The notes: generated from the sequence alone by a model not told the origin. DNA of 64,000 nucleotides from Gemmatimonadales bacterium (GCA_037045245.1 JBAOHR010000007.1:860604-924603), one strand, 5' to 3'. Positions 4,794 through 64,000 are shown, numbered from the stretch's first letter. Numbers and translations: made by a program.

Positions 4794-4959
4794 GTCATTC
4801 CTGGTGCGTTGGTCGGTCGGGGAACACCCCCGAGGGGTCGTCCTCTGAATATACGGCTTCGCCGGGCCGAAGGATGAGACACCCCGACGTCCCCATGGGA
4901 TGCCACGGCCACGATAGATTCCATTCCACTCACTTTCTGCCCGATGCACGAGGCACCTG

Positions 4960-6378
4960 ATGCGACGCACCCCGCCCGCCACGATTGCACCCGCCGCCCC
5001 CGGGGCGGCCCGACGCCCGAGCCGTTGCCTGGCGGCCGCCGCCCTGCTGCTGGCCGCCTGCGGTGGCGGGTCGCCCACCGGCAACAACGGCGTCGAGGTG
5101 GTGGTGATCACCCCGTCGACGCTCTCCGTCGGGGTTGGCGGCATCGACTCGCTCCGGGCCGTGGCGATCGGCGCCGGCGGCAGCGCCGTCTCGACCTCGA
5201 TCGCCTGGCGCTCCCTCGCCCCGACCATCGCCTCCGTCACCGCCACGGGCAAGGTCACCGGCCTGGTGCCCGGCAGCGCGATGGTGGTCGCCTCCGCGGG
5301 AGGCAGGGCAGACACCGTCGAGGTCCAGGTCTACGGCGAGCTGCAGTCGATCACCGTCACCATCGACCGCCCCATCATCAAGTCGAGCGACACCACCCGC
5401 GTGCGGGCCATCGGGCGTGACGTCGGCGGGCGCATCGTGCCGATCACGCCGGAGTGGTCGGTCGCCGATCCGACCGTCGCCATCGTCGCGCCCAACGGCC
5501 TCGTCCTCGGCCTGCGCTACGATGCCAACACCCCGATCTTCGCCAGCGTCAACGGCATCAACGGCTTCGCCACCGTCTCGGTCCTGCCGTCGGACGTGAA
5601 GAGCGTGGCGATCCGCCCCGACGCCGCGACGATCTCGCTCGGCACCTCCCTCGCGCTCATGGCGACCGTCACCGACGAGTTCGACGTCGAAGTCACCGAC
5701 CGCACCGTGCTCTGGACGTCGACCAACACCGACGTGATCACCGTGAGCAGCACCGGCCAGTTGCTTGCCGTCTCGCCCGGCACCGCGACGGTGCGCGCGG
5801 CCACCGGCGGCAAGTCGGGCACGGCGGCCTTCACCGTGCTGAGCGTGCCGCAGAACGTCTATCAGCTCGAGGTCACCAACCAGTTGATGGCATCGGTGCG
5901 CGTCTTCGTGAACGACTCGCTGGTGGTGGTGCTGCAGGAGAATTCCTCCAGCGCGCTGCAGCTGCCGAAGGTGCCGAGCGTCACGGTGCGCTGGTCGATC
6001 ATCCGCCCGAAGGCCGGGACCGCCGGCGAACCGCTGAACGAGACCCTTGGTACCGTGACCAGTCCGGATGGCATCGTGCGCTTCACGATCGACAACGTCA
6101 TCAACGGCACGACGTATTTCACGCCGTTCGTGCGCTCGCTCGCGACGGAGAAGTTCAATGTGGACATGACGCTGAAGGATGCGGCGGGACCGTGCGGGTG
6201 CGCGGTGTCGGCGGCCGAACCGGATCGACGCTTTGGCTATTGGCGCTACGGGCCGGGGGCGACGATGCTGCTGATCAACTCGGCCAATCCGTCGCAGACG
6301 ATTCCCATGGCCGTGCCGCTCGGCGGCATCGAGACAGGGACCGGCATCTGGCGGTCCACCATCCTCGTCGGCCCCTGA
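4960..6378 (+). CDS. lipoprotein with bacterial Ig-like (Big_2) repeats
   Basis: 472-aa ORF with signal peptide and lipobox LLLAACGG. It has repeated units of the type ITPSTLSVGVG..L.A......V..SIAW.S..P.IA.V...G.VTG..PG.A.V.A, which look Big_2-like. Confidence 0.7.
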   Translation: MRRTPPATIAPAAPGAARRPSRCLAAAALLLAACGGGSPTGNNGVEVVVITPSTLSVGVGGIDSLRAVAIGAGGSAVSTSIAWRSLAPTIASVTATGKVTGLVPGSAMVVASAGGRADTVEVQVYGELQSITVTIDRPIIKSSDTTRVRAIGRDVGGRIVPITPEWSVADPTVAIVAPNGLVLGLRYDANTPIFASVNGINGFATVSVLPSDVKSVAIRPDAATISLGTSLALMATVTDEFDVEVTDRTVLWTSTNTDVITVSSTGQLLAVSPGTATVRAATGGKSGTAAFTVLSVPQNVYQLEVTNQLMASVRVFVNDSLVVVLQENSSSALQLPKVPSVTVRWSIIRPKAGTAGEPLNETLGTVTSPDGIVRFTIDNVINGTTYFTPFVRSLATEKFNVDMTLKDAAGPCGCAVSAAEPDRRFGYWRYGPGATMLLINSANPSQTIPMAVPLGGIETGTGIWRSTILVGP

Positions 6379-47334: not shown

Positions 47335-47758
47335 CTAACGGTGGCGTGGTCGGCCTTGTGCGGTGCAGCGCCAAGTAGGTGGGCAGCGCGGCGCAAGAAC
47401 GGCGGCGATGTGCCCCGACTCCAGCACCGCGCCGAAGTGCCCATCGCAGAAGCGATCGTATCGCACGTGCCCGTAGAGCAGTTTGCGGAGCGTCACCAGG
47501 CGGGCGCGACCGAGGGCGCGTGGGTCATGCATCAATTCATCGGCGCGCCGGCCCCACGCGCTCCAGTTGAATTCGATCATGACACCCGACTCGTAGAGTG
47601 CCTTGTGAAGGCGCATCCCGACCGGTGCGAGGTCGTAGTAGGGGAATTGCCCTTCCTTCCACACCATCCGCCCGGCCTCGAAATCCGGTGCCTCGAGCTC
47701 CGGGAAGAAAGGCGAGGACGTCGCCCCAGTGAGGGGTGTCGGTGTTGCGATTTGGCAT
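47335..47758 (-). pseudogene. DUF6508-like protein, one frame change
   Basis: RALGRARLVTLRKLLYGHVRYDRFCDGHFGAVLESGHIAAVL resembles the DUF6508 C-terminal signature as I recall it. The ATG at 47758 (MPNRNTDTPHWGDVLAFLP) is in the 47537..47812 frame and joins ELEAPDFEAGRMVWKEG in the 47335..47955 frame. Confidence 0.35.
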
Positions 47759-47804
47759 TGCGGAAATGTAGGGTGTGGGTGTGACAGCGACAGCACGCCA
47801 GCCG

Positions 47805-48298
47805 TTATCCACGAAACCAGTGGCCTGACATGTCGGCCTTCAAGCCGGACTTGGCGATCAACAGGGCTGCACATGCCGAGCAGACTCTGACAATGCCACG
47901 ATTCGACTTGGTGAACTGGTGGAAAATCGAACCGAGTGCGTGGCACTTTGCGCAATGGCCTCTCTCCGACACCAAACGATCCCGTGTGGTGTGGAGCTGA
48001 ATGGGCTCCTCCGGGGCCGATTGAAGTCGCTGGTCATACAGTGCATCGTTGGGAACCACCGTGACCGTACGCGTTGCCACGACGTGAATCAGGCGTGAGC
48101 GGTGGCCGCGACGGCGCGCTGCGTTGGGGCGAGGGGCGCCTGAGAACGGGCGCTGGCGCGACCTGTGGAACAGGTGGCTTTGGTTTCTCCCGCGGTGGTG
48201 GCGCTGCCACCACTTTGCCTCGGCACGTGCTGCTCGTGGGCCTTCAGCAAGCGGACATCGAAATACTCGGCACACTTGGTACATGCTCGAAGTCTCAC
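47805..48298 (-). pseudogene. possible zinc-finger protein, one frame change
   Basis: The N-terminus MRLRACTKCAEYFDVRLLKAHEQH (C2H2-like, 48089..48298) continues in the 47805..48284 frame with ..HCAKCHALGSIFHQFTKSNRGIVRVCSACAALL. Confidence 0.2.
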
Positions 48299-48333: not shown

Positions 48334-48690
48334 CTAGTTCTGGTAGACGCCATAGCCCTGAGACCGGAGTTCCTCCGCGTACGCTCGCTCGTATTCTTCC
48401 GCTATTCGAGACTCCTCACGATCGAGTTGCTGGCGGAGCTTTTCCCGCACGAGTTCAAGCCCAAACTCTCTCGCCGACCTGCAAGACTTATAGCCGTTCA
48501 GATGTTGAGCGAACCTTGTTTCGGGGTCAGTGTCCAGGTCTTTCCGACGTAGAGAAAGTCGCGGAACCACGGTCGACTCTGTGTTTTGCTCGATAAAGCG
48601 ATCATCTTGCGCCACTTTCGGATCAAGCCGAACCACATACAACCAGCGCCCACCTTGGGTAGTCGCTGTTGCCCAGTCACGAGGCTGGCG
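48334..48690 (-). pseudogene. possible GIY-YIG-like protein, frame-disrupted
   Basis: WLYVVRLDPKV... and ETRFAQHLNGYKS...AEELRSQGYGV are in the 48334..48822 frame. The expected YIG-type motif FLYVGKT appears only in the 48498..49997 frame. Confidence 0.25.
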
Positions 48691-51060
48691 CAGCGGTAGA
48701 TCCCCCGCAGGATGCCGTCTCGGCCGTGCCCGCCGACCGAGCGCCAGAATTTTTGGCGGCCTTGCGAACCCGGCGGCCGAACATTGTGCGAACGAAGTAG
48801 TGCAGCACCATTCCATCCGCATTCTCGAGCTGTCTGGTCACCTCTCCTGCCACCGCTCCCCAGTTCGAGCTCCATCCGGTCGAGATGAAGTCCACGATTA
48901 GGTAAGGGGCATCCACCTTCAGGATTTCGGCGGATCTCTTCCTCGTACTGGATCTGCATCTCGTTGCCTCCCACCACTAAGAGGCGTATGTGACGCTTGG
49001 CAGGGGGCGCTGGCGGTGGCTCGAGCTTGCCCTCGAGACGATCGAGGCGACTGCGCAGCTCTGCAACTACCTCGTCCACGTGCTCAAACTCTTCCAAGCG
49101 CTCAAGATACGAGACCGCTTCCGCCCTTTGCCAGAGCTCCGGGCGAGCGAGTGCTTCTTGAGCCAATTGGATGAGGAGTCCCACCCCCGCGTCTCGATCT
49201 CCGCGTGCCAGCTGCAACTCAGCCTCCGCCAGGCGGAGCTCTTCAGGTTCTCGGATGGAGGTCAGCCGCTCCTCGGTATGAAGCAGTTGGATCGCGTCTT
49301 GAGTCCCGATCCCCCTCGCTGCCAGCTCAAGCACTGATCCCAATGCCTCGTCGGCTTCGTCAAGGAGCGCTTCGTGGCGGAGCAAGCCACAAAGCGCAGT
49401 CTTTGCGGCGTCAGCCCGTCGACTGGTGGAAAGTCCGTCCTTGCGGCTGCGTTCCAGGAATGCCAAGGCGACCGCTGGGATATCCGTAGCCAGCTGGGCC
49501 AGGGTGGGCACAATGTCTTCGCCGCGCTGCCTGACCAAGGCACCGAACATCCGCCCCGCAAGTTCAACGTCGGCCGTGCCTACGGCGGTGAGCACGGACT
49601 CGAGCATCCAACTGGGGATTCGGAGCTCCTCGGTCGTGGACTCGAGCAGCCGAGTCCCCGCCGAGAGGACCGTTCGGGGAGTCCCACCCTCCAGACAGAC
49701 CGCCAGCGAGTGGTGCAGGTCCGCGCGATCCAGTAGCCCAGAGCGCGTATACACGTCTGGTCGATTCCGGAACGCGGAGAGGGCGCGCTCAAGTTCAGCC
49801 CGTGCGAGTGCGAAATGCTCTGACAGCAAGTGGAACATCCCAAGCGCATATCGCGCATGGGCGGCACCGTCCGGATCGAGATCAATTGCCCGATCCAACA
49901 GTGGCCTGACATCGGCAAGGCGTCCCGCCTCCGCCACAGCGTCACCCCGTTCCTCGGGTAGGACGACATCAGCGAGCTCCCGCCAGCCGGCATCCATGAG
50001 CGCCAGGTCCGTGAGCGGCGTCTGGAGCGGAGTGCTGCGTCTTGATCCTCCTCGTCGATCAGGGGCACCACGATGCTCCTGGCGGCATCGAACTCACCGG
50101 CAAGGCGGGCGGCAGTGTGCCTGCCGGCGCCTGCCGCCGTCCGAACAAAGTCGTCGGGGACGGAATGCCCCTGCTCTTCGGCAACGGCGAGTCCATTCCG
50201 GAGGCGGTCGAACGCCGGCCGTGCCGTGGCGAAATCGCGCAGCAGCAAGTGGCTCGAGGCAAGCGCGAAGAGGCGGCGCCCCGATACGTGGCGACGCCGC
50301 CACGGCCTTGGGGCCGATCGAATGCGATCGCTTCCGTGCTGGCGGCCGGCCTCCCACAGCACGCCCAGCAGGAGGTGGGGCGCCGCCTCTGCACTCGCGC
50401 CCATGCCGTCGTTGCCAAGTTGGCGACAGAGGGGATCGGCATCAAACAGTGCGAGTACCTCCGCATCGCGCTGGCGACGCAAGCAGACCGGCAATCTTGC
50501 CGGCCAAATACCACCGTCGCGCGTTCTCGGATGTCCCGGCGGGCTGCGGGGCGAATTGCCCCTTCATCGAAGAGCGCCGAGAGCCGCCCCGCCGCATACC
50601 ATGACTGGTGGCGCTGCGGATGGGCCGCGACCAGCTCGGCAACCAGGCGCCGCGCAGCCTCCATTGGGAGGGCCGCCTCGGCGTGGTTGGCCGAATTGAC
50701 GAGGTGGACAATGACTACGTCGTCAAGAACTCCGAGCTGCTGTCCGATTCCGGGAAGCGCCAGACGGAATCCGCGGAGGCGCGGTTCGGTCGTCCTCGGA
50801 CTCCTGCTTCGCTTCGGGCTCGTCCTGTTGAGGGGCTCCTGGCACTGCGGCAGCAGCCGCTGGGGATAACGCATGCAACGCGTCGCCAAGACCTGGCCAT
50901 CCCTCGGGGATGATGGCCAGGAGACACTCGAGATAGTGTCGCGCCTCGCTCCCGTGCTGTTCCGGCAGGGCCGGCACCGCACGGGCGACCGCCTCAGGGG
51001 TGACGAACGGAGGCGACTGTTCGTCGGTGCGACGAGGCCCGTCATGGGCAACACCGACAT
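48677..51060 (-). pseudogene. large helical/TPR-like protein with DUF2325-like C-terminal domain, many frame changes
   Basis: A coherent helical-repeat sequence can be followed through track ORFs 50723..50977, 50059..51060, 50442..50711, 49580..50494 and 48498..49997. The C-terminus is RLLVVGGNEMQIQYEEEIRR.. then LIVDFISTGWSSNWGAVAGEVTRQLENADGMVLHYFVRTMFGRRVRKAAKNSG (48677..48916). Boundaries are approximate. Confidence 0.35.
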
Positions 51061-52183: not shown

Positions 52184-53060
52184 CTACGGCTCTCCAAGCC
52201 CCAGATCCGAGTGAATTTCCACGCCGAGAACGGCCCGAAGCCCGATCAGTGAGGCCGGCAGCTCCCCGCCCAGCGCAAGGATGACCGCGCAGTCGACATG
52301 CCTCTGCTCAGCCTTCGCTTCTGCTTCGATCACGGCGAGGTAGCTCGACGCATTGAAACATGCCCCGCACGACCTCGCCGAGGCTGGCGTTTGGCGGCTT
52401 CACTTCGACCGCGATACGACGCGCCGCGGAAGAGAATTCCACGTCGAGGCGATCTCCAGAGTAGAGACACACTTCCATCCTGCCTGGAGCGAGGGACGCC
52501 GGCAGCCCGACAAGTTGTGGGCGCGCGGCCACTGCCTTCTTGAGAACGAAGATGGCCCCTCCCCTCACCAACCCCTCCGCCTGCGCCGACTTCCTCCACC
52601 GGGGGTAGTGCGCTAGACGGTGGTGGGACCGGATCGAGATCATAGCGGCGAAGCACCTCAGGCCATCGATCGAAGGAGAAGACCTTACTCAACATCGCAT
52701 CGATGATGATCCGCCGCTGCCGTGGCGAAGCCTTGGTGAATGTCTCGGCGTCGGGCGCAAACCACGAAATACCCTCCCCCGGCAAGCCGCTGTCCCGATT
52801 CACAACCAGCGCTTGGATTGGGGGCACTTTCTACTCGTCCGAGTCCGACCCACCTCCAACATCGAGTTGCCGATCGCCCCAAGCACGTAATTGAGATTCC
52901 GTGGGTTCGGCATACCGAGCTCCAGAGCGAGCTCGCCGTAGCGTATCGTCTGACCGGCTATTGCTTGGCGAACAAGGATCGGGAGGGCAGCACGAGCTCG
53001 AACTTGGTATAGCTTGTCGCCATTGAGGTCACCCACCAATGCTTCCCCAGTTTCCGTCAC
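52184..53060 (-). pseudogene. MGMT/Atl1-like winged-helix domain fused to PD-(D/E)xK nuclease-like domain, about three frame changes
   Basis: The N-terminus TIRYGELALELGMPNPRNLNYVLGAIGNSM (52800..53060) continues as VPPIQALVVNRDSGLPGEG (52330..52827). The nuclease core is DRLDVEFSSAARRIAVEVKP...RGMFQCV (52308..52643). The tail is YLAVIEAEAKAEQRHVDCAVILALGGELP..-stop at 52184. Confidence 0.45.
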
Positions 53061-53305
53061 GTGTCACCCCCCAGTATGCCCAATTCTCCTTGATCATCCG
53101 GCCTCTCCTTCCGCGGTGGGCCAGATGGTGCCACAAGTCGACCTTCAGCAATTGCGAGAAGTTCGCGCTCGAGCTGCTTCGCGCGATCCGTAGTTCGATA
53201 CGAGAGCTCAGAACGGATGTCACCAAGGATCTGGCCGTTGTGAAGATTCTCGCGCGGGCTATTTTTTAGTTCGTCGAGCGTGGTCTTGAAGAACGGTCGA
53301 GTCAC
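53057..53305 (-). CDS. hypothetical small protein
   Basis: 82-aa ORF overlapping the downstream start by 4 nt. Helical and charged. No family recognised. Confidence 0.3.
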   Translation of the reverse strand: MTRPFFKTTLDELKNSPRENLHNGQILGDIRSELSYRTTDRAKQLERELLAIAEGRLVAPSGPPRKERPDDQGELGILGGDT

Positions 53306-53393
53306 GATATGCCATCCGTCAGGGGAGCTGGATTGTCCAATTCTGTCATTTCACTGCTTCTACTAGGATAGCCCTGCCAGCGGATCGCCTCCT

Positions 53394-54109
53394 TTACCAT
53401 CGCCCGTTCTGCTGCCCTGCACCCTCACCGGTGTCATCCTTCCATTGCCGCCGCCACACGTTCTGCAACCGAAAGCACGGGTGCACAATGGACACGATGA
53501 CGCAGGGTGGGATCGAAGCTCCCGCAAAAAGCACATTCTCTATGAGCGAGTGGCCGGCGGCGTCCCATTGCTTGAAACTGCCCTTTGCCGTCCAAGGGCT
53601 AAGCTGGGAGGAGAGCGGTCCAAGGAAGGGGGGACGTACTTGCCCAAGGCGAGGATGAGTGCTGGCCGCTGAGTAGCGACCTGCGTCATGAAGAACTCCT
53701 GACAGCGTTTCACGAAGCTCGGACACTTTGAGCCAGGGAAGCGACCTGTCGTCTCATCGCCCTCCCTCAGCCCCATATAGATGTTCGTGAAAAAGCACTG
53801 CTCCTTTGGGACTGCGACGTCGTCCAAGAATGTGCAGAGATTCCGCCAGGTAGGAGACTTTAGGTTCTCCTCTTCATGCTTCTTGGACCATTCGTACCCG
53901 GCCTCGTTATGGAAGTCGTGGCCCAAGACCATGATGCCGCCGACCGGGAACACTGGGAGTTCTCGCGCTCCCGGCATCCAAAGTCCAGTGCCACCCGGAA
54001 AAGGCTCTGTCCCCACGATTTGACTGGGGACTTCGACAACTCCCTCTGGATACGGCGCAATTCCTTGGTGAGCTTGCCAAAGTGCCAAACTGGGATGGAT
54101 GTCGCTCAC
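53394..54109 (-). pseudogene. uracil-DNA-glycosylase-fold-like protein, one frame change
   Basis: The GTG at 54109 overlaps the upstream stop (GTGA). GGIMVLGHDFHNE and CFFTNIYMGL are placed as UDG-superfamily motifs A and B would be (weak). The C-terminus continues in the 53394..53726 frame (ALILALGKYVPP/FLGPLSS..). Confidence 0.35.
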
Positions 54110-54778
54110 AGCCCAGCTACGGGCAGAAAGACGTTGACGACACCTGATTTTGCGAGGTCACCGGAAATTCCGAGGTGCTGGTACACCTTGGGGAGCGCGG
54201 CCTTCCACTCTGCCGCCGAGCCAGGCCCTTTCATGTCATGATCGCCGTAGAAGTAGAGGAAGACCAGATGCGCATCAACACCGTGGCTGCGCAAGAATGC
54301 AAGATGCGCCAAACGATTAGCATACTGATAGAAGCCATTGAGCCAATCGGCTTCAGCCGGCGCCCCGAATTCGTGCTTCGTGCGATCAAGAGAGCCCCTG
54401 ATGACCGCAAGAGACTTGGCACCCGCTCCACAGGAGGAGGAGAGTTCGCCGAAATGGGCCTTCGCCTCGACGAGGATCACCTCACCGGCAGAACCAACGC
54501 CAAGCGCATCCCATTGCGGACCCCCAATCGGCCAGAACTGCTTAAGCGCGGGCAGGAGAGTTGGCTGCCGAACGGATCGCAGGAACCCAGCATCCCGGTA
54601 CTCTGCGAAATCATCCGCCTCACGCGGGGAAACCCACTCGACGGTCCAGGTGGATTTTCATTCACGACCGGGCGGATCGCCTCGGAAAGAAGAGTGGGCT
54701 GGCTGTTCAGCAGTCGCTGCATCCACTTAAGGCTGCCGCGAGTACCAACGGGCTGTGGGGTCCGGGCGCAATTCGCAT
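54106..54778 (-). pseudogene. PD-(D/E)xK nuclease-like protein, frame-disrupted near the N-terminus
   Basis: Core GPQWDALGVGSAGEVILVEAKAHFGEL (D ... E-x-K). The ATG at 54778 is coupled to the GmrSD stop (TGATG) with GGGAGG upstream. Reading then needs shifts near 54710 and in the A-run near 54660. Confidence 0.5.
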
Positions 54779-56505
54779 CACACACCTCCCGAGCTGCTGC
54801 TGGGCGCGATTCCGAGAAAGGAATTCAACCGGGCAACGATCATCGCGCGTCGCGAATTCAGGAATTCCGGGTACTGATCAAGCGGCAGGAGGGTAGGATC
54901 ATCTGGAATGCATTGGGTACTGAAGGCTTCCGAGCCTGCCCGGCTCACGATCTCCGGAAAGTACGCTTCCGGCTTCTTGTCCCGGATGAACTTATTTGTC
55001 GCGGCGCTAATGAATGCCAGATTCGCGATATCGTCGATTTCGCGCGACGGGAAGCGATTTTTCAGCTGTGCCTTCGGGAATATGTGGTGAAACTCGAGCT
55101 TGTGCTGTGAGCCACTGTGATCCAGCGCGATCGCCACCTTTGAAAGCCACTCCTTAGCGCCTTCTGCCCGGAACGCAAGAAACATCGTCTTGAATAGTGC
55201 ACTACGTTGCGTCCTCCCCTCCAGGTCCAGGGGAGTGATCTCGAGGCGACCGACCTGCAACTGGAGTCGGCCGAGGAGGTCAGCAACAGATTTCCCTTCC
55301 TTCACAACAGTCAGATCCTGATCCAGAATCGTCTCGCTGGAGCCCCGGGAGTAGCGTCCTTTTGCATTCGCCAGGAGGGCCCAGCGCGCCAGCTCAACCG
55401 ACTCTTCCGGGGTAAGGTGGAATCGGCGATGGTGCCCATAGTATCCGAGAGTGATCATCAGAAATGGAGAGGAAAGCAATACAGGTGAAGTGATCCCACA
55501 GTTATTGCGAAGAAAGTTGATCGCGAACTGCATCCCGCGAACGCCTGCCTTCCAGCTCTCCTTCAGCACCTCAAGCGGTAAGCTCCCGACGGTCTTGAAG
55601 CGCGACTGTCCCGTCCCATAGACTACGAGATTTTTGAGGTGGATGCCGAGATCCAGCTCAAAACCTTCCCCCTCGCATTCCTCCTGGAACCCCTGGAACA
55701 CTTTGAGACTGCCACGCCAACGCGCAGTGATTTGTGCTAACGCGAGGTCCGCGCTGCGGAGTTTTGCTCCAAGCGAGTTGACCCGCACAAAGATTTCCGT
55801 GACTTCGTCGTATGAGAGCGAGCGATCCAAGACATCGAGACGGTAGACGTACTTCTTGACGGCGCGCAACTTGGCGAGTCGCTGGGTGTACTTGTCAGCC
55901 CGTGGATCATCGAGATCCGTGACGCCAGCGCGCTTGAGAAAGGCACTGTCTCCCTCGGACTTGAGCACATCCGTCACTTTAACCCATTGTGGCAACTGTT
56001 CCAGCTTCTTGGTCGAAATGACGAAGGTCATCCGATTGAAGCGTTGCAGAAGCTCGTCCTCGGTCGAATCAGCCTCATCACCATCCACCTCATCGGCCTC
56101 GTCTTCATCCACGCCTTCCTCGTCGACCTCAGATACCACCTCCAGCCGATCCGGGTGTTCGAGGTTAAAGAGGAGTTCAATCGGAAGCTTCCTGCCGCGG
56201 ACCAAGAGTGGTTCCCCTCGCAGCACCGCAGAGAGGGAGGTAAGCCGCTGCTGCCCGTCAAGAAGCAGCCTCGTCGTGCGGAACGGGTTGCCCTCTTGGG
56301 CAATGGCCATTTCCTGTTGCGGTATTGGGTCGTCGGATTCCCAGAGCAGAATCGCGCCAGATGGGTAGCCCCGGTATAGCGAGTCGAGGAGGTCGCGGAC
56401 CCGTGTCGAACGCCAGACATAGCGGCGTTGCATTTCGGGGAGGCGCAATTCGCCGCGCTGGATCATGCCGACGAGCTCTGCAACTTCCGCCTCTGCCTTT
56501 GCCAT
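54778..56505 (-). CDS. GmrSD-family type IV restriction enzyme (DUF262 + DUF1524)
   Basis: 575 aa, intact. DUF262/ParB-like motifs LPEMQRRYVW, YRGYPSGAILLWE and LLLDGQQRLTSL. DUF1524 His-Me finger: KLEFHHIFPKAQL...DIANLAFISAATNKFI. Confidence 0.9.
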   Translation of the reverse strand: MAKAEAEVAELVGMIQRGELRLPEMQRRYVWRSTRVRDLLDSLYRGYPSGAILLWESDDPIPQQEMAIAQEGNPFRTTRLLLDGQQRLTSLSAVLRGEPLLVRGRKLPIELLFNLEHPDRLEVVSEVDEEGVDEDEADEVDGDEADSTEDELLQRFNRMTFVISTKKLEQLPQWVKVTDVLKSEGDSAFLKRAGVTDLDDPRADKYTQRLAKLRAVKKYVYRLDVLDRSLSYDEVTEIFVRVNSLGAKLRSADLALAQITARWRGSLKVFQGFQEECEGEGFELDLGIHLKNLVVYGTGQSRFKTVGSLPLEVLKESWKAGVRGMQFAINFLRNNCGITSPVLLSSPFLMITLGYYGHHRRFHLTPEESVELARWALLANAKGRYSRGSSETILDQDLTVVKEGKSVADLLGRLQLQVGRLEITPLDLEGRTQRSALFKTMFLAFRAEGAKEWLSKVAIALDHSGSQHKLEFHHIFPKAQLKNRFPSREIDDIANLAFISAATNKFIRDKKPEAYFPEIVSRAGSEAFSTQCIPDDPTLLPLDQYPEFLNSRRAMIVARLNSFLGIAPSSSSGGV

Positions 56506-56546
56506 CCGGGCTCCTTGATTCTGTGATCTAGCTCACCTGCCCCAGC

Positions 56547-57377
56547 CTAATCCATCCGGCAGTATCCAGGGATATCCTGAATCGACCCGCCACGAACGTT
56601 GGTTTGCTTCGCAATACTCAACTGCTTACACTGCCGGTACTTCTCCTCCGTCTGGAAGAGGAGATACCCGTGCGGATCGAACAACGCTCCGGGAAACCTC
56701 TCCAGGTTATTGTACCAGCAGCCATCCTTGTGGTAGAGCGCGTGACGCACGGAGACGTGCCACCGCTTGGCTAGGCCCTTTCCGCTGAGGCGCCCTCCTG
56801 CCCGCTCCGGCATCGTCGTGCCCCCCCTTTGCTTACGCTTTACATCACGTGGCTTGCTCGGCGGGCGGTCGGAGCCCATCTCACTACGTTGCAGTTCCGT
56901 CACAACCTCCCAGACCTTCTGAGTAGCCACGGAGAGTACTGAGGCAAAGGCTTCAATCTCAGAGGGGTCCATGGAAACAAACTCTACGGAGGGCGCGCTC
57001 CCCCTTGGGCGCTGCCTTCGGCTGACGCGAACGGGCCTCCCGGTCTCAGCCCAGTACCCCCAAGATGAATGGAGCAAGCGGTTGCGCTCCTCCCCGAGCC
57101 GACCGAGGTGAGCTGCGAGAGCAGCGGTGTCCATGGGCACACTGGTGACACCGGGCGCCGCAGCGAGGACAGCCACGAGCCGATCCGTCATCCATCGATA
57201 ACCGGCGCCGACAACTACTGCTCGCGCCCTCGCGTGTTCACCCAAGGCAACAAACAGGAGATGTCCCAGCGCTTCTTCAAGCTCTGCAAAACGGAAAACG
57301 ACATGGCCGAGCGATCGGTAGAGTTCGTCGGTGACCTTCTGCTCCTCGGCATGACTCACAGCGTCACCCACCATCAT
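56547..57377 (-). CDS. HEPN-like domain protein with unassigned C-terminal domain
   Basis: 276 aa, intact, with an ATGA overlap to the upstream gene. The helical N-domain has an Rx4H motif (GEERNRLLHSSW). A basic linker is followed by the C-domain RWHVSVRHALYHKDGCWYNNLERFPGALFDPHGYLLFQTEEKY. Confidence 0.55.
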   Translation of the reverse strand: MMVGDAVSHAEEQKVTDELYRSLGHVVFRFAELEEALGHLLFVALGEHARARAVVVGAGYRWMTDRLVAVLAAAPGVTSVPMDTAALAAHLGRLGEERNRLLHSSWGYWAETGRPVRVSRRQRPRGSAPSVEFVSMDPSEIEAFASVLSVATQKVWEVVTELQRSEMGSDRPPSKPRDVKRKQRGGTTMPERAGGRLSGKGLAKRWHVSVRHALYHKDGCWYNNLERFPGALFDPHGYLLFQTEEKYRQCKQLSIAKQTNVRGGSIQDIPGYCRMD

Positions 57378-58150
57378 TCAAAGTCGGCATCGAGTGGAGA
57401 GCGTCGAGACTTGTTGGGCGATTTACGCAGCGCCAATAAGTCTCGGTGTCTCATAAGCCAATCAGTCCCCTTCGCCGTGAGAGCGTACGCCGTATACTCC
57501 TCACCATTGTACCCTTGGTTCTCAAAGGACTCGAGAAGTCCCTTGACCCCAAGAGCCTTGACGCCCAGAACTGCAGCCAAGTGGGTGAAGCCAGCCTTCG
57601 CCATATCGTTCTTGATCGCATGTGCCGAGGGAGCGGAATCGCGATCAAGTTCGTACTCCGCGATCAGCGCTAGGGCAGTCATCTCTATGGCATCAAGGCC
57701 CTCGGTCTCCTCCAAGGGGGATTCCACAAGAGTGGAAATCACAGATTCTCGCTGCATCGCGGCCGCGAGCCGCGTGGTGAGCTCCTCCGTGAACGTCGCA
57801 AAGTCACTCGAAGAGTCCCTCCGGTACTTCACTACGTGGCGGTGCTGTACGTCGAAGGGAAAATGGGTCCGGCTCCCCTCGTCGCACACGAGTACAAGCG
57901 GCAAGCCAGTTGCAATCGCAACCCCCAACTCGAACCACACGTTCGGATTATCAATGGAGATATCCGCCACGCAAGCCACGGCTCCACGAATTCCCTCCAT
58001 AATTGCGTCGATGGGAATGCTTGCGCGTGGATCACGGTCCACACGATATGGTTCGAGGCCAGCAGCGACGATGGCGGGAGCAATGACATCGTCGTAGCGC
58101 TTGTCGAAAGGGCCACCATCGAATGGTTGAATTACGAAGCATGTGGACAC
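57374..58150 (-). CDS. nucleoside 2-deoxyribosyltransferase / TIR-like fold domain + C-terminal winged-helix-like domain
   Basis: 258 aa, intact. The GTG at 58150 abuts the upstream TAA and has GGAGG 6 nt upstream. The pattern CFVIQPFDGGPFDKRYDDVIAPAIVAAGLEPYRVD...IMEGIRGAVACVADISIDNPNVWFELGVAIATGLPLVLV fits that fold. Confidence 0.55.
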   Translation of the reverse strand: MSTCFVIQPFDGGPFDKRYDDVIAPAIVAAGLEPYRVDRDPRASIPIDAIMEGIRGAVACVADISIDNPNVWFELGVAIATGLPLVLVCDEGSRTHFPFDVQHRHVVKYRRDSSSDFATFTEELTTRLAAAMQRESVISTLVESPLEETEGLDAIEMTALALIAEYELDRDSAPSAHAIKNDMAKAGFTHLAAVLGVKALGVKGLLESFENQGYNGEEYTAYALTAKGTDWLMRHRDLLALRKSPNKSRRSPLDADFE

Positions 58151-59186
58151 TTAACCCCTCCAGACATGGGCGGTGGAAGCGTCAAAGTACGATATCGACA
58201 AGGGCCGCGAGGATGGCCGCCGCGACACGACTTGGTTCGCCCGGCGACGAATCCGCAAATTGTCCGGTGAGAAGGGGTCGCCGTACAACCCGACGCATAA
58301 CTGTTTGCACTTGTTCTTTTCAATGAGCCGGATGACGTGGTCATCGCCTGGGTCCATCGAGTGCCCGTATACATAGAGCGCCCCGGAAATCCCGAGCAGA
58401 CTCTTGTGCCCACGTACCAGATAGTCACTGTGCCGGATCTGGGCACGTTTTGCGGTGCTGTCCCCATCTGACACGTAGATCGGGTAGAGCTCCTGTTCAA
58501 GTGCGGCCCGAATCTGATCCATCAACGCTTCCTGCGTATTTCGCCACGTGTACTTCTGGACCTCGTGGCCGCCATCAAAGATGTGAAGTGCTCCGTGTAG
58601 ATAGAACATCTTCTGGTTGTACGAATTTTCCATTTCCCACGTTACGTAGGGCGCGGGTCCATCTTCGGGAGTTCTAAACCCATCGCTAAACTCTAGGTTC
58701 GGCAAAATCTCCGTCTGCATGACCGTCCAGTACAGCAGGAGGTCATAGTTGAGTGTGTAGACGTCGTTGAACCTCGACAGAAAGCGGCGAGCGTACCCGT
58801 ACTCCGCCGCGGAGACCTCCGACGGACGGCTCGGATGCCTCCTCCCGAGGGTTTGGACGAGCACTTCTTTGAGTGCAGCGGCATCCCTACGAAGGATCGT
58901 GATGACGTCCTGCTGCCCAGGAAGGTATTCCTCAAGAATTTTCGCAGCTGACCTGCAGGCCACGCATAACGGTTTCAAAATTTTGGGTTTGGAGAAGGTC
59001 AAATGCTCGGCGCCCGTGTGCACTCAATCTCTCAAAGTTTGCCTGTTCATAGAGTGCACCGTAGGCAAATACATCATCTCGCCAAGCTCGACTGAAGCCG
59101 TTGCCAAGAAGTAAGTGCCGCTTCTTTTGATCTGGCTCTAGCGCGATGGCGTCCTCAAATGAGATCACATCAAAGCTCTCACTCAT
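58151..59186 (-). pseudogene. DUF4917 / SIR2_2-like protein, one frame change
   Basis: The ATG at 59186 (MSESFDVISF..) overlaps the HNH stop (ATGA). HLLLGNGFSRAW is in the 58932..59213 frame. VYTLNYDLLLYW, FYLHGALHIF and YVYGHSM are in the 58151..59023 frame. The switch lies between 58935 and 59020. Confidence 0.7.
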
Positions 59187-59959
59187 CTCGCTACCATCCT
59201 GATGCGGTGCCATTCAAGGTATGGTCCATGCCCGGCACGAAGTCCTTGAATGCTATGACTGCCAGTCAGACCCAGCACCCGCCGCTCCAACTCACCCAGC
59301 CTCTCGGACACCAACACTTCGCCACCCCCCCCAATTCCAATTAACCCCGCATCGAACGCCGCATCTAGGTGTGCCGCCAACAACAGCCCGTTGTGCACAT
59401 CGAGCCGCTCGGCGTCGGTGCAGTCCTTCCACGGCTTGGCATGGCTGGCGCGGAGCAGCTCCCGCTGAGACACCCCGGTAATCGCGCACCGCCCGCCCCA
59501 ATATTTCTCCAAGGCATCGCGAAACAGATCCTGCCCAACGCGCTGCTTGACCTCCGCAACCCGCTCTGTGGTCCGCGGGCCAGGCATGGAGGCAAGCGTC
59601 GCCTCCACCTCTTGCTCCCATCGCTGTTGCGGTTGGTTCGGCAGCACTTGCCCGAGGAGAGCGATTCGGCGTAGCAAGGCGTCGAGGGCCCGGTCACCGT
59701 GGCAGGCCCATGCCGCCGCCGCGCCATCGGGCATTGGACCTTCCAGGGACGCGCACCCATCAACGGGCCCAACCTCGGCCACAAGCGCCCATGGGCCCGA
59801 TGCGACGATGTGATTGTTGCCGTCCCCTGCCAACCAGACGCTCGCCAAGTTGCCCGCCGCGCCGAATCCGAGCCAGCCACTTCCGGCCGGCACAGGAAGG
59901 TTGAATCCAGCGTCGTTGGCCCTCATCCGAAGCAGAGTGTTGTCGCGATAGGAAGTCAT
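59183..59959 (-). CDS. HNH endonuclease (HNH_2 type), probable nuclease partner of the methyltransferase
   Basis: The ATG at 59959 shares one base with the MTase stop (TGATG). The motif is RVGQDLFRDALEKYWGGRCAITGVSQRELLRASHAKPW...ERLDVHNGLLLAAHLDAAFDAGLI. Confidence 0.8.
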   Translation of the reverse strand: MTSYRDNTLLRMRANDAGFNLPVPAGSGWLGFGAAGNLASVWLAGDGNNHIVASGPWALVAEVGPVDGCASLEGPMPDGAAAAWACHGDRALDALLRRIALLGQVLPNQPQQRWEQEVEATLASMPGPRTTERVAEVKQRVGQDLFRDALEKYWGGRCAITGVSQRELLRASHAKPWKDCTDAERLDVHNGLLLAAHLDAAFDAGLIGIGGGGEVLVSERLGELERRVLGLTGSHSIQGLRAGHGPYLEWHRIRMVAR

Positions 59960-62900
59960 CAGGCTGTCCCGATCAGCCGGTCCCACGCCTCGAGGACGAG
60001 GCGGCGGGTGCGGTACTCGCCAAAGGCGCGAGCTTCCTGGGCCCTTAAGGATCGAAACGTCTCCGTGGGATAGCCATCACCCTTCGCGGCCTCCGGGTCC
60101 AGAATGAAGAGCAGATCACTCCGCGACAATCCGTATAGTTTTGCGACGTACACATCAAGTTCCGCGCGCACGGTTGCGGCGGCTGACTGTTCAAGGGTTC
60201 CGGAAGGGGGTTGCAGCCCGAGTTCGGTCGCCAACTCGAGCGAGAATGCGAAGCTCCGACCCTCGCCGGGCCCGACGAGGGCTAGCACCCGTCGCCCAAG
60301 GTCCACCGCAATTGATGCGTTCACTTGACTGGGCGTTGGGATTGCAATCTGACGCATCGTAAAGAACTTGAACGCCGTTCCTCCGACCTTTTGTCGGGCG
60401 ACATAGTCGGCGGTGAGGGAATTCAGAATGGCCAACAGACATCCAGACTGGAGGACGGAGCCCGAAGGAAACATCAACAGGAACTTGTCTCCTACACCGT
60501 ACCGTGGGATTACTGCAGAGATTAGTGTCCTTTTGTCTGTGGCCCGGGCGATATCCCGCCAGCCCAACAACCACGGCCGGTCCCACCCCTTGGCGTTGAG
60601 TCGCGCCTCAACCTCTTCCTGCGGCACCCAATAGCGCGGGCGCACCTCGAAGTTCGGATCCCGCTTCTCCTCGGCGGTGACGTTCCGGGCAGCGTCTTCA
60701 TCGGCACCAGTATACGTGGCCCATCGATGATCGTATTGATGGATCATTTTGGCCTCGTACAACGGCAGTAGGCCCGGCCCGGGGGCTGTCTCAAACAGCC
60801 CCGAATCGCTAGTCATGTTGAACAACCCCTGCCGGAACTGGATCCCCCGAAGCGTTCCCATCCTCCCTCGTCTCATCCCAGAGCACGGGGACATTGCGAT
60901 AGATCTTGGCAGTGAGCTCGGCGTCGGCCTTCGAGCGGAAGATTGGCGCGGTTCCGGTGTTTGGATTGAGGCGCTTCAGGTCTTCGGCCGTGAGAGTGAA
61001 GCGGCGCCTTTCATCGAAGCGCTGCTCCGCCTGAGAAAGGAAGAAGGCGAAGGTTGGCTCTGCGAGGCGCCCGATCGTGAGCAAGCAAAACTTGAAGCTC
61101 CGGTGCACGCCCTGAAAAAGCGCCTCCCGATTCTCGAAATCGATGAGCGACGCCAATCGCCCATCAGCCACGTGCCGGAAGAAGGGTGCTGTCCCGGCGT
61201 CACTGGCGATGCCTGAGGGGAGAACCAGCCCTGCCCGACCATCACGGTGGACGAGCTGCAGCGCGACTTCTGCAAACAGGGCGTACAAATTGACGATCCC
61301 ATTGCCGGTCAGCGGGAAACGCCGACCACCACGCGCATACGAGCTCGTCGCCTCGGAGAGGTGGCTCGCCGCCTGATAGGCCTGAAACAGGCGCCATCCC
61401 GGCGAGTCGATTGGCTCATGCTGCAGCGCCTGGATCATTCGGTCGCGAATGGCCCCGGTCGCCGCCTGCGCAATCGCAGGAGCCCGCACGCTGAAGAACT
61501 CAGTGTCGTTCAACGTGACCTTCTCCCACGGGGGATTCCCCACGACGCAATCGAAGCCGCCTCGAGCCATGATTGGGGCGAAGGTGATCGGCCAGTGGAG
61601 GAACGGAACGGACGCCGCTACCTCCGCCACCATCGTTCGCATCGCCTCAGGGACCGCCACACCAACCCCAAGATTTCGGAGCGTCCCCGTCGTTGGGAAG
61701 TGCTGGCGCGTGCGATCGTCTTTGCGAAGGATGAATGCCGCCACGTAGGCATCGCACGCGAATCGGAAATCGGTGTCCTGAGCAGCACGAGCTCCTGCCA
61801 GTGCCGCTTCCTTCGCGGCGACCTCGCTTAGCGTGCCATCGGGCATCGCCTCCAGTGCCGTTAGCGTGGCAGTCCAGGCGGATTGGTCAAACGTCAAGGC
61901 AAACTGGCCCGCTCCCCTCTCGCGCTCCAAGTCACGGCGCTCGCCACGGTTTCGCGTCTTCAACGCCGTAGCTGCGGCCCGGTCGTCCCCGGTGAGCGGC
62001 GTGAATGCCTCGTCTGGGATCCCTTCCGCGAGTACCGCCGGGTCATGGATACCGAGGATGCCATCGCCGTGCACGAGGTGATGCGCCAGGAACGCCAAAG
62101 GCTTCCCAGGCTCCATCGCCTCGAGCCAGAGAGCGATCCGCGCCAGCTCCACGGCCATTGGATTCTTGTCGACGCCGTAGCAGCAGCGCGAGATCACTTC
62201 GCGAAGCGCCGAGCGGAAGGCCTGCGGACCTGGCGTTCCATCGCTCCGGAGCTTCGCCAGATGTCCAGCAATCCGCCGCGCCGCGCCGAGCAGAAAGTGC
62301 CCACTTCCCATGGCTGGATCGAGAATCGAGAGGCTTAAGAGGGCGTGCTCAGGGTCGTCCGCAGCCAATGCCCGATCGATGAGGGGATCGAGAGCGGAAT
62401 CGAGCAGCGCCTGCACTAGGGAATCAGGGGTGTAATAGCTCCCCGTCAACCTCCTCGCCGTACCTTGCCCAGCTGCGGCGACGGCCAGTGGCGCATTCGG
62501 ATCAGGATCGCCCACGAAGCCAAATCGCTGGGCCCCGTCGTGAACTTCCGGGACGAGCTCGAGCAACGACTCGTAGACACTCCCCAACTCTTCAGTCCCC
62601 ATGTCGCGCCAGTTTACGCGCACCAGCGCGTTCCCCTCGGTCAGCCACGTGAGCCGGAACACCGCCTGCAATAGCGCGTGATTGGGGAGCCTGACGCCCT
62701 CAAGGTCCGGACACTGACTTGCCTCGAAGAGGCCGCCAAGCCCGGGAAGCGCCAGTCGCGGCTCGCCGGCAGCGCATCCCCGAAACGTCTGCTGCAGCCC
62801 GTCCCAGGCATCATCGTGACGATCGTGCGAGCGCCGCCGAACCGCCCGCTCCCGCAGACGGCGGAGACTGTAGCCGTCCCGGTAGGTCGCCAGCGCTGCC

Positions 62901-63835
62901 TCCGCGCTTCCCGGGGGGTGCAGGAGTTCGCGCTCCTCGGCGACGAGAAGGAAGATCAGGCGGTAGACCAACCGGAGGAGCTGCTGCTCATAGCCCGCGG
63001 CATCGAGAGCACCGCTGGTAAGCGCCTCCCTCAGCACGGCGTTTCCGGGATGCGCCAGGAAGCCATTCCCTAGAGCGCGGAGTGCCTCCTCGACACCATC
63101 GCGCAACCGGTCCCGTGCCGCCGTGCCAGACTCGAGCGATTTGCCCCGCCACTGCTCAAGGATGGCTTCGTGCGGAGGAGCGTCCGCAGTCCCGAACCGT
63201 GACTCGTGCAACAGCAACCAGAGAAGCGAAAAATCGGCGTACCGCTGTTCACCGAAGATTCGGGCAAGGTCGACCTCGATCCACGCCGGTCGGGTCAGCG
63301 AAGCATTGTCCCGCACCAATCGAAGCACCTGCCCGTTCGTGGCGACACCCCACAAGGCCGATTGCTGAGCGTTCAGATACTCCTGGACCAGCCCGAACGC
63401 CGAGCGCCGCTTGGTCCCATCGCCGAAGCGGACGTCCCCAGCGTCGAGGTCCTGTTGCCCGGGTGCGACGACCAGCGGAACCCGGCCCCCAACCCCGACC
63501 GCGGTTAGGAGAAAGCCCCGATCCTCAACAATCATCGGACTCGTCATCCGAACCAAGGAACCCCATCCGAAGGCCTCCGTGAGCATCGCCATCACGGCCC
63601 GCTGACGCCCCTCAGTCTGAGGCCCGGCAGCTTCGACGTCCCGCCAATGTGCTTCGGCGATGCGCCATGCTCGGCCGATTTCGTCGCGAATCTGCAAACC
63701 GCGGGGCAACTGGTACGCGTCAGCGGTCTGCTGACCAGCCTCAAGGCTGGCGACCTGGGCGAGGAAGTCTGCGCTCAGTAGCCCGCCCTCGAGCGAGATG
63801 GACTCAAAGGCGAGCTGTGGACGGCGCCGACTCAT
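59959..63835 (-). pseudogene. Eco57I / type IIG-like N6-adenine DNA methyltransferase (~1290 aa) with large N-terminal domain and TaqI-like specificity region, one frame change
   Basis: The ATG at 63835 overlaps the upstream stop (ATGA). SAM motif ILDPAMGSGHFL and catalytic motif VVGNPPWEK. N-terminal ALWGVATNGQVLRLVRDN. The C-terminal part LPLYEAKMIHQYDHRWA.. is in track ORF 59959..60894. The frame switch lies between 60809 and 60894, next to a GGGGG run. Confidence 0.85.
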
Positions 63836-64000
63836 GAGCCCGCCACGGGGAGAAGGATCCATGCCCCGACAACGTCGACCGGCTCCTTGGCCAGCACCGA
63901 ATAGGTCCCTCGAGCCCGCGCCGCGTCACGGACGCGCCGGTGATCCGCCAGCAGCGCTTCAGCGCGGCGTTTCGCAACATCGCCCAATGCCTGCTGGAAG
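63832..64000 (-). CDS. 3' end of an upstream gene of the same operon (partial)
   Basis: An open frame runs to the window edge: ..FQQALGDVAKRRAEALLADHRRVRDAARARGTYSVLAKEPVDVVGAWILLPVAGS-stop. The stop overlaps the MTase ATG. Identity unknown. Confidence 0.4.
   Translation of the reverse strand, partial: FQQALGDVAKRRAEALLADHRRVRDAARARGTYSVLAKEPVDVVGAWILLPVAGS

Follow-up and report, generated by a model that had tools for sequence, protein, structure and literature searches.

Genes embedded within larger antiphage loci were catalogued by Payne et al., whose PDC and HEC candidates are by definition genes lying inside BREX, DISARM and type I restriction-modification (R-M) loci and who discuss PrrC as a model for an embedded back-up effector (10.1101/2024.01.29.577857). 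PDC-S21 is a single-gene phage defence candidate from that 2024 'guilt-by-embedding' screen, and HEC-05, a BrxU-like GmrSD, is validated defence (bioRxiv 10.1101/2024.01.29.577857). Among related proteins, AbiH has been placed within the immune SIR2 clade (bioRxiv 10.1101/2024.09.18.613514), and Swarozyc joins DUF4062 to an AUX domain of the helix-turn-helix (HTH)/winged type in a single-protein sensor-effector (bioRxiv 10.64898/2026.05.01.722283). Here we analyze three consecutive minus-strand genes (positions 56547-59186) in a 64,000-nucleotide stretch of DNA from a Gemmatimonadales bacterium (GCA_037045245.1 JBAOHR010000007.1:860604-924603), referred to as the window. Gene i encodes a SIR2-like DUF4917 protein that matches PDC-S21, gene ii carries a nucleoside 2-deoxyribosyltransferase (NDT)/TIR-like domain followed by a winged helix-turn-helix (NDT-wHTH), and gene iii carries a candidate HEPN-like domain, which we have named G3N, and a small C-terminal domain, G3C. 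A preliminary description of this DNA had proposed the trio as one undescribed defence module. The locus is probably better described as a series of independently mobile defence-type genes strung in a coupled, R-M-anchored operon than as a new three-part system, because each of the three families normally occurs without the other two. The layout of the operon corresponds to what Payne et al. describe as the 'embedded defence gene' architecture (10.1101/2024.01.29.577857).

A direct reading of the sequence confirms the minus-strand gene run, and every coupling claimed for it in the preliminary description is present. The ATGA at 59183-59186 overlaps the HNH stop with the DUF4917 start, the TAA that ends DUF4917 at 58151 directly abuts the GTG at 58150 with a GGAGG 6 nt upstream, and the ATGA at 57374-57377 overlaps the gene ii stop with the gene iii start. 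The coupling also reaches beyond the three genes first reported. The stop of a large methyltransferase gene overlaps the likely start of the HNH_2 gene by 1 nt (TGATG, with the ATG at 59959; window 59957-59961), and therefore all five genes, methyltransferase, HNH_2, DUF4917, NDT-wHTH and gene iii, are start/stop coupled. A GmrSD gene starts 41 nt past gene iii, with AAGGAG upstream of its start. The run is thus a five- or six-gene operon, and it may continue past the window end upstream of the methyltransferase. The motifs quoted earlier for genes i to iii (LLLGNGFS, YTLNYDLLLYW and LHGALH; CFVIQPFDGG and NPNVWFELG; ERNRLLH) can all be read in the translations, and all fall on invariant or near-invariant columns of their own family alignments.

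The distribution of the three families is what separates a stacked operon from a conserved module. Gene ii has 1740 full-length homologues of ~250-275 residues, spanning bacterial phyla and some archaea, and at least 319 GTDB species carry one. We inspected the contexts in 80 of these species with 8-kb flanks, a set that includes Acidobacteriota, Planctomycetota, Proteobacteria, Bacteroidota, Firmicutes and one archaeon, and none of the 80 loci has a DUF4917 or G3N relative within 8 kb when searched with phmmer and profile hidden Markov models. Across the 80 loci no neighbour family recurs, and for most copies a tightly linked neighbour is lacking; the flanks are a mixture of housekeeping genes (aspS, apt, dnaE, gyrB, glnA) and a minority of strong defence matches. 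The second-closest NDT-wHTH relative (60% identity) follows a UvrD helicase gene and is itself followed by variable genes. On the otherwise identical contigs L106-L109 the same NDT-wHTH protein, P0027, is encoded after UvrD, and the next gene encodes either a 135-residue unknown protein or a 161-residue MUG113 protein, which points to a local hotspot of insertion.

The other two families give the same result in smaller samples. DUF4917 contexts were taken from seven lineages (54-65% identity, plus plasmid copies), and none of the seven has an NDT-wHTH or G3N gene nearby. DUF4917 lies inside a type I R-M locus in L094 (3859-4872; hsdM-hsdS-DUF4917-hsdR), beside one in L102 (4995-6044; hsdS-hsdR-DUF4917), and within the order DUF262-hyp-DUF4917-hsdM-hsdS-FRG-hsdR in L105 (4995-6068); it stands alone, with no R-M neighbour, in L095 and L104, and after an unknown gene in L103. 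Neither partner family was found near G3N in any of six contexts; the G3N relative is alone in L097, follows a REase-ARP protein in L099, lies beside a PDC-S35 TIR-like protein in L091 and adjoins unknown proteins in L090 and L087. The three families are therefore distributed independently, and in these 80, 7 and 6 contexts the proposal of one three-gene module fails the co-conservation test that the preliminary description had itself set.

Two related islands place the window in a wider comparison. The closest gene ii relative (64% identity) lies in L001, which repeats methyltransferase, HNH_2, DUF4917, NDT-wHTH and G3N with the same tight junctions and is the only repeat that we found. In L093, the overlapping HNH-DUF4917 junction is kept, with the end of the upstream open reading frame (ORF), GEVERRVLG...WHRLR, aligning with the HNH C-termini of the window and L001, but genes ii and iii are replaced by an unrelated 390-residue gene (1182-2354) situated between DUF4917 and GmrSD. 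The L093 GmrSD gene has 77% nucleotide identity to that of L001, and the window GmrSD is not orthologous to the L001 enzyme (28% identity, N-terminus only). The swap in L093, the non-orthologous GmrSD and the lack of G3C in the L001 orthologue of gene iii make the island a mosaic whose modules can be exchanged. The overlap between HNH_2 and DUF4917 is conserved in three lineages (window, L001 and L093), and this pair, not the trio, is the most stable link in the island.

Several points weigh against reading the operon as a stack of separate defence genes. The context samples are small for DUF4917 (seven lineages) and G3N (six), and many of the contigs are short. At ~64% protein identity the window and L001 still share the five-gene order and its tight overlaps, which could reflect selection for a functional unit and not shared descent alone. 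Additionally, the sole studied DUF4917 protein, Campylobacter jejuni SliP, which threads onto ThsA and has sirtuin-type activity, is described as a secreted deacetylase and not as an immune protein (PMC10421069).

Table 1 Genes and domains of the coupled operon and the adjoining GmrSD gene, in window coordinates.
Feature	Position	Strand	Remarks
Large N6-adenine methyltransferase (type IIG / DrmMI / PglX kind), N-terminal part (1017 residues)	60809..63862	-	First visible operon gene
Same methyltransferase, C-terminal part (311-residue ORF)	59959..60894	-	PADLOC REase_MTase_IIG C-terminal region 1e-13
HNH_2 nuclease, 258 residues from ATG 59959	59183..59959	-	Pfam HNH_2 9.8e-12; PADLOC HNH 1.1e-25
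Gene i, DUF4917 / PDC-S21 SIR2-like, 344 residues after removing one base	58151..59186	-	Pfam and PADLOC
Gene ii, NDT / DNPH1 / TIR-like domain (residues 1-~110), long helix, PadR-type winged helix (residues ~150-235)	57374..58150	-	
Gene iii, G3N N-terminal domain (residues 1-180), helical with beta-meander insert, candidate HEPN-like	56838..57377	-	
Gene iii, G3C C-terminal ~90-residue mobile domain	56547..56837	-	Absent from L001 orthologue
GmrSD / BrxU-like type IV restriction enzyme (PADLOC HEC-05)	54778..56505	-	Pfam GmrSD_N 3e-28

The first two genes of the operon are an R-M-like pair. The N-terminal part of the methyltransferase matches Pfam Eco57I (6.3e-16) and N6_Mtase (5.3e-8) together with PADLOC DrmMI (2.6e-61) and REase_MTase_IIG (6e-33). 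Its start lies 138 nt from the window end. Of the full gene sets that mark DISARM (DrmA/B/C) or BREX (BrxA/B/C/PglZ), PADLOC searches with the eight proteins encoded within 54778-63862 matched no further Drm or Brx model, and ORFs further downstream were searched with Pfam only. Although the mechanical HNH ORF starts at GTG 59986, the L001 homologue is 258 residues long and begins with MT, and judging by this length the true HNH_2 start is probably ATG 59959.

Given the stability of the HNH_2-DUF4917 junction, one could argue that methyltransferase, HNH_2 and DUF4917 are the functional unit, with the SIR2-like protein as the dedicated partner of an R-M-like system, and that genes ii and iii are unrelated cargo that inserted downstream of it. 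The overlap shared by the three lineages agrees with this, as does the repeated placement of DUF4917 relatives inside or beside R-M loci in L094, L102 and L105. However, the R-M partner varies, being HNH/type IIG-like here and type I elsewhere, and the DUF4917 genes of L095 and L104 manage without one, a pattern more in keeping with opportunistic embedding than with partners that are fixed, which makes such a unit unlikely.

Gene i is clearly a member of the DUF4917 family, in agreement with its initial assignment as DUF4917/SIR2-like. Its two ORF fragments score 33.7 and 175.8 bits against Pfam DUF4917 (cutoff 28) and match PADLOC PDC-S21 at 1.5e-21 and 2.3e-85. With one base removed, the repaired protein passes the curated DUF4917 (PF16263) cutoff over the full model, scoring 216.6 bits with positions 1-311 of 311 covered. 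Among 51 DUF4917 relatives, G28, N29, G30, F31, S32, D149 and H198 are invariant and N147 is at least 90% conserved, and the SIR2 hallmark residues (GxGxS loop, N/D pair and catalytic His) are all kept in the window copy. Weak matches to SIR2_2 occur in 48 of the 51 relatives (best 3.4e-5), and 14 match AbiH; a search of PDB sequences with the gene i protein and the DUF4917 family profile found nothing. Conservation of these motifs supports a SIR2-like protein with a predicted NADase activity. In the literature searched, we found no experimental test of PDC-S21.

The single frame change noted earlier in gene i is real in the window sequence and comes down to one extra base at 58950 (CAGGT[C]AGCTG, minus strand) relative to L101, a contig from a different sequencing run. 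L101 is 100% identical to window 57808-59331 (1523 bp) save for this 1-nt gap, and it encodes an intact 344-residue protein, P0311, from the same 90% cluster as gene i. The existence of an identical sequence without the extra base also led us to reject a programmed frameshift in DUF4917. The methyltransferase frame is likewise broken, near 60849 (GCTT[C]GGGGG), where removing one C restores N-A-W-G-I-Q-F-R; tblastn with the intact L001 methyltransferase matches two window frames, and the L001 homologue is one uninterrupted ORF. Both breaks are of the same kind, one extra C on the coding strand, ~2 kb apart. An assembly error is favoured for both because the two breaks are alike in kind and one is contradicted by an independent assembly, and the sequences thus point to such errors. 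Were the breaks genuine mutations, this copy would be non-functional and the island decaying, as two single-base disruptions within ~2 kb (58950 and 60849) might suggest; but with the independent L101 assembly encoding an intact protein, with two extra coding-strand Cs that have the look of systematic assembly error, and with all other catalytic motifs intact, decay is improbable.

The fold assigned to gene ii in the preliminary description, an NDT/TIR fold fused to a winged helix, is borne out by a confident AlphaFold2 model (mean predicted local distance difference test (pLDDT) 88.9) and by structure and profile searches. With Foldseek, the N-terminal domain best matches MilB (4.7e-5), followed by NDT (5e-4), DNPH1 (1e-3) and many TIR domains (~1e-3), and the C-terminal domain matches the winged helices of PadR, LmrR and DnaD-N. 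The NDT-wHTH family profile matches Rcl/DNPH1 (0.004), placing E74 of the 'FELG' motif on the glutamate of the Rcl/DNPH1 'YELG', as well as the PadR-like protein TA0346 (0.0034). At the level of single sequences the assignment is less direct: gene ii falls below the Pfam PF05014 gathering score (15.6 vs 28.8 bits; E 0.018), roughly half of the listed homologues have a precomputed PF05014 match, PADLOC reports a CBASS 'Effector TIR' match (3.8e-6), and Pfam at E<=0.1 gives no DUF4062, TIR or CAP12-PCTIR match. Invariant residues of the family are Q8-P9-F10-D11, R18, Y35-R36-x-D38-x-D40, N68-x-N70-x-W72-x-E74, P98-F99-D100 and H103, and mean column identity across phyla is 46%. A (d)NMP (nucleoside or deoxynucleoside monophosphate) and NAD+ are the candidate substrates. 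Neither Pfam nor PADLOC has a model dedicated to the family, and it lacks a conserved partner gene, so that it can reasonably be put forward as a candidate immune protein of a new kind, encoded by a single gene and directed at nucleotides or NAD.

A non-immune role for gene ii, either as a nucleotide-responsive transcription regulator or as a housekeeping nucleotide-salvage enzyme, deserves consideration, as winged helices of the PadR type are typically the DNA-binding module of a regulator, many homologues adjoin aspS, apt, GTPase genes, dnaE, gyrB or glnA, and for a defence gene a mean column identity of 46% between phyla is high. We consider such a role quite improbable, however. The catalytic-type residues are invariant, including E74 at the DNPH1/Rcl nucleophile position, and neither a target operon nor a divergent partner is conserved. 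Furthermore, a minority of neighbours are strong defence matches (DRT UG36, DarG, Old, GajA, AriA, type IIG and an SpbK-like TIR), close relatives adjoin Gabija-like UvrD/OLD genes, and N-domain homologues occur in temperate Streptococcus phages.

The Streptococcus phage proteins (H46-H56, 30-36% identity) contain the NDT-like domain without the winged helix. In most of the matching phage records the homologue lies 3-6 kb from one end, as in Streptococcus phage SM1 (gp11, 4680-5066), and in phiARI0923 it lies at 28 kb; this position may fall near the lysogeny module. In plasmid matches (H31-H44, from Rhizobium and others), the NDT-like domain forms the N-terminus of a larger protein that NCBI names 'TRAFs-binding domain-containing protein'.

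Gene iii is the least familiar of the three proteins. Its G3N domain has 47 representative relatives in an exhaustive search, all of them stand-alone proteins of ~150-190 residues, and a metagenome scan with a narrower G3N alignment returned 4 loci only. Across 44 relatives, R98 is invariant and N99, H103 and W106 are at least 90% conserved within the motif LNxERNxxIHSxWG, and R98-N99-x3-H103 agrees with the HEPN R-x4-6-H motif with a polar residue after the Arg. The model (pLDDT >90) shows long helices and a three-stranded insert, with the RNxxxH motif at the C-terminal end of a helix ahead of the beta-meander. The window copy of G3N belongs to no Pfam, PADLOC or NCBIfam family, and sub-threshold HEPN Pfam matches occur in 7 of the 44 relatives (HEPN_RiboL-PSP in three, HEPN_Cthe2314 in three and HepT in one). 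Foldseek with the gene iii model finds nothing significant in the PDB (best E 0.31) and one unnamed 159-residue phage protein in BFVD (E 0.024). The earlier suggestion that gene iii is HEPN-like therefore stands in part: the Rx4H motif is kept across relatives, but no fold match was obtained and the HEPN Pfam matches stay below threshold. On the conserved motif, a HEPN-like G3N is plausible.

The ~90-residue C-terminal domain that could not be placed at first inspection is still without a known family, as Pfam, PADLOC and PDB searches with G3C gave no match. Homologues of G3C (P0002-P0024) are usually ~160-residue proteins with a SeqA_N-like ribbon-helix-helix N-terminus; in P0005 the domain is instead fused to a 5'-nucleotidase, and in P0012 to a helical region of 250 residues. 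Its conserved motif is W.V..RHALYH.DG.WYNNL..FPGALFDP.GY, and pLDDT is <50 in the segment that is conserved best. Some JGI names would make it an HNH/McrA nuclease, which we rejected as there is no Pfam HNH match; the motif, judged by eye only, also shows no evident His/Cys pattern of the HNH type. PDB sequence searches with G3N and G3C, as single proteins or family profiles, found nothing. For genes i to iii as a whole, NCBIfam holds no model and PHROGs only 'unknown function' families.

Two further loci contain proteins with an RNxxxH or Rx4H motif. In L091 (3271-5098), 74 nt separate the gene for a G3N relative (P0147) from a downstream gene for a 403-residue protein with a C-terminal CAP12/PycTIR-type TIR-like domain (PADLOC PDC-S35, 3.3e-54); this is a second RNxxxH protein adjoining a TIR/NDT-class protein, which might not be coincidence. 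The 390-residue protein of L093 has no Pfam or PADLOC match and carries LRNQIIHG (Rx4H), and on the basis of this motif a different HEPN-like candidate may fill the gene ii and iii slot there.

Looking at the operon as a whole, its five genes could also form one R-M-anchored multi-effector unit, in which the methyltransferase and HNH proteins stand guard as a complex and, once phage anti-restriction proteins have disabled it, three latent effectors are set free at the same time, the SIR2-like protein as an NADase, the NDT/TIR-like protein as a nucleotide glycosidase and the HEPN-like protein as an RNase. We regard this as decidedly unlikely; if true, it would extend the logic of PrrC to several effectors. 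A less far-reaching version would make the uncatalogued NDT-wHTH family, with its at least 319 species, a new immune family of single-protein sensor-effectors. Least probable of all is that DUF4917, NDT-wHTH and the HEPN-like protein make up one integrated NAD- or nucleotide-directed system (for example, with the NDT/TIR-like protein sensing infection or making a signal and the other two serving as effectors), for although all three genes are start/stop coupled, their order and coupling recur in L001 at ~64% identity, and a SIR2 and TIR-like pairing recalls Thoeris, the partners do not co-occur in any of the sampled contexts, L093 swaps two of them while keeping HNH-DUF4917, the ~340-residue DUF4917 relatives carry no SLOG, Macro or other ligand-sensing domain, and PADLOC matches neither ThsA nor ThsB.

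With the operon read as a stack of independently mobile genes, fold and motifs suggest that each of the three proteins would act alone as an abortive-infection-type effector. NAD+ would be depleted by the DUF4917 protein. The NDT-like protein would attack an N-glycosidic bond, either in a nucleotide or in NAD+, and its winged helix could bind DNA or, as in Swarozyc, sense a phage protein. The RNxxxH HEPN-like protein would cleave RNA. Co-transcription would provide co-regulation and co-transfer, and some of the operon genes may back up the R-M pair when it is inhibited, following the logic of PrrC and of embedded genes. Gene iii appears to have picked up the extra C-terminal domain, G3C, in this lineage.

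The GmrSD gene that follows the operon combines a DUF262 N-domain with a DUF1524-type C-terminal nuclease, as in GmrSD/BrxU. It matches HEC-05 at 1.1e-42 over residues 166-565, and its C-terminus contains HHIFPK...N; Pfam at E<=0.1 gives no GmrSD_C match. GC content drops to 57-62% over the last ~16 kb of the window, compared with ~70% elsewhere, for which a horizontally acquired island is the best explanation. Past GmrSD, 52330-54785 holds several small minus-strand ORFs without a Pfam family. Among them, the ORF at 53540-54109 has a weak UDG-superfamily match (E 0.014), and the abutting ORFs 54106-54480 and 54477-54785, the first of which contains ILVEAKAH, could be one gene. At the boundary of the low-GC island lie a DUF6508 protein (47335-47955; 3.1e-23) and a 499-residue TPR ORF (48498-49997) whose tail looks out of frame. 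Apart from these UDG, TPR and DUF6508 matches, Pfam returned nothing for the remaining island ORFs (52.3-54.8 kb and 46-50 kb).

This locus illustrates that a multi-gene defence system should not be called from tight start/stop coupling and a single relative with the same synteny. Much of what it carries is already known, as DUF4917 is a catalogued candidate and GmrSD/BrxU, NDT-like effectors of the retron Ec86 type and TIR-like effectors such as Swarozyc have been described. What is new is a large uncatalogued family of solo NDT-wHTH proteins, a rare RNxxxH family (G3N) and an unnamed small mobile domain (G3C), the latter two without models in current libraries. Of these by-products of the analysis, the solo NDT-wHTH family, widespread as it is, holds the most interest. 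Additionally, the recurrence of DUF4917 beside R-M genes and the HNH_2-DUF4917 junction in three lineages make an R-M-guard hypothesis testable.

Of the described systems, Thoeris resembles the trio in having a SIR2-family protein and a TIR-related fold in adjacent genes, and differs in that the window proteins match neither the model of ThsA (SIR2-SLOG or Macro) nor that of ThsB and that the window has an extra HEPN-like gene. We rejected membership in Thoeris on the lack of a PADLOC ThsA or ThsB match and on the two families not being found together in 87 other loci. The preliminary description saw neither a SLOG sensor nor a canonical TIR; there is no Pfam TIR match, and the ~340-residue DUF4917 relatives are all single-domain. 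It did not recognise the trio as a named system; gene i had already been catalogued singly as PDC-S21. Compared with the SIR2 immune NADases (ThsA, DSR1/2 and AbiH; 'SIRim'), DUF4917 shares the conserved GxGxS, N-x-D and H motifs, and gene i lacks a fused SLOG, Macro or DSR2 C-terminal sensor.

The N-domain of gene ii has its best structural matches in the cytidine monophosphate (CMP) hydrolases MilB and BcmB, DNPH1/Rcl and NDT (Foldseek 4.7e-5 to 1e-3), enzymes that lack its C-terminal winged helix. The NDT-like effector of retron Ec86 is also among its closest known counterparts, but gene ii is not linked to a retron reverse transcriptase or non-coding RNA. In overall design gene ii matches Swarozyc and the TIR-like effectors CAP12/PycTIR, with an N-terminal TIR/NDT-class domain bearing a conserved Glu, a C-terminal HTH/winged domain and a solo gene, although structurally it is nearer to MilB, NDT and DNPH1 than to TIR domains.

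The match of gene i to PDC-S21 spans the whole model, and the gene lies directly beside R-M genes in the same orientation, like the embedded candidates. The difference is that here it is coupled to an HNH_2/type IIG-like pair, whereas those candidates sit inside type I, BREX or DISARM loci. That R-M proteins would hold DUF4917 inactive is proposed by analogy with PrrC only, and the arrangement itself is of the PrrC type, with DUF4917 nested in or abutting R-M operons in the same orientation in L094, L102, L105 and the window.

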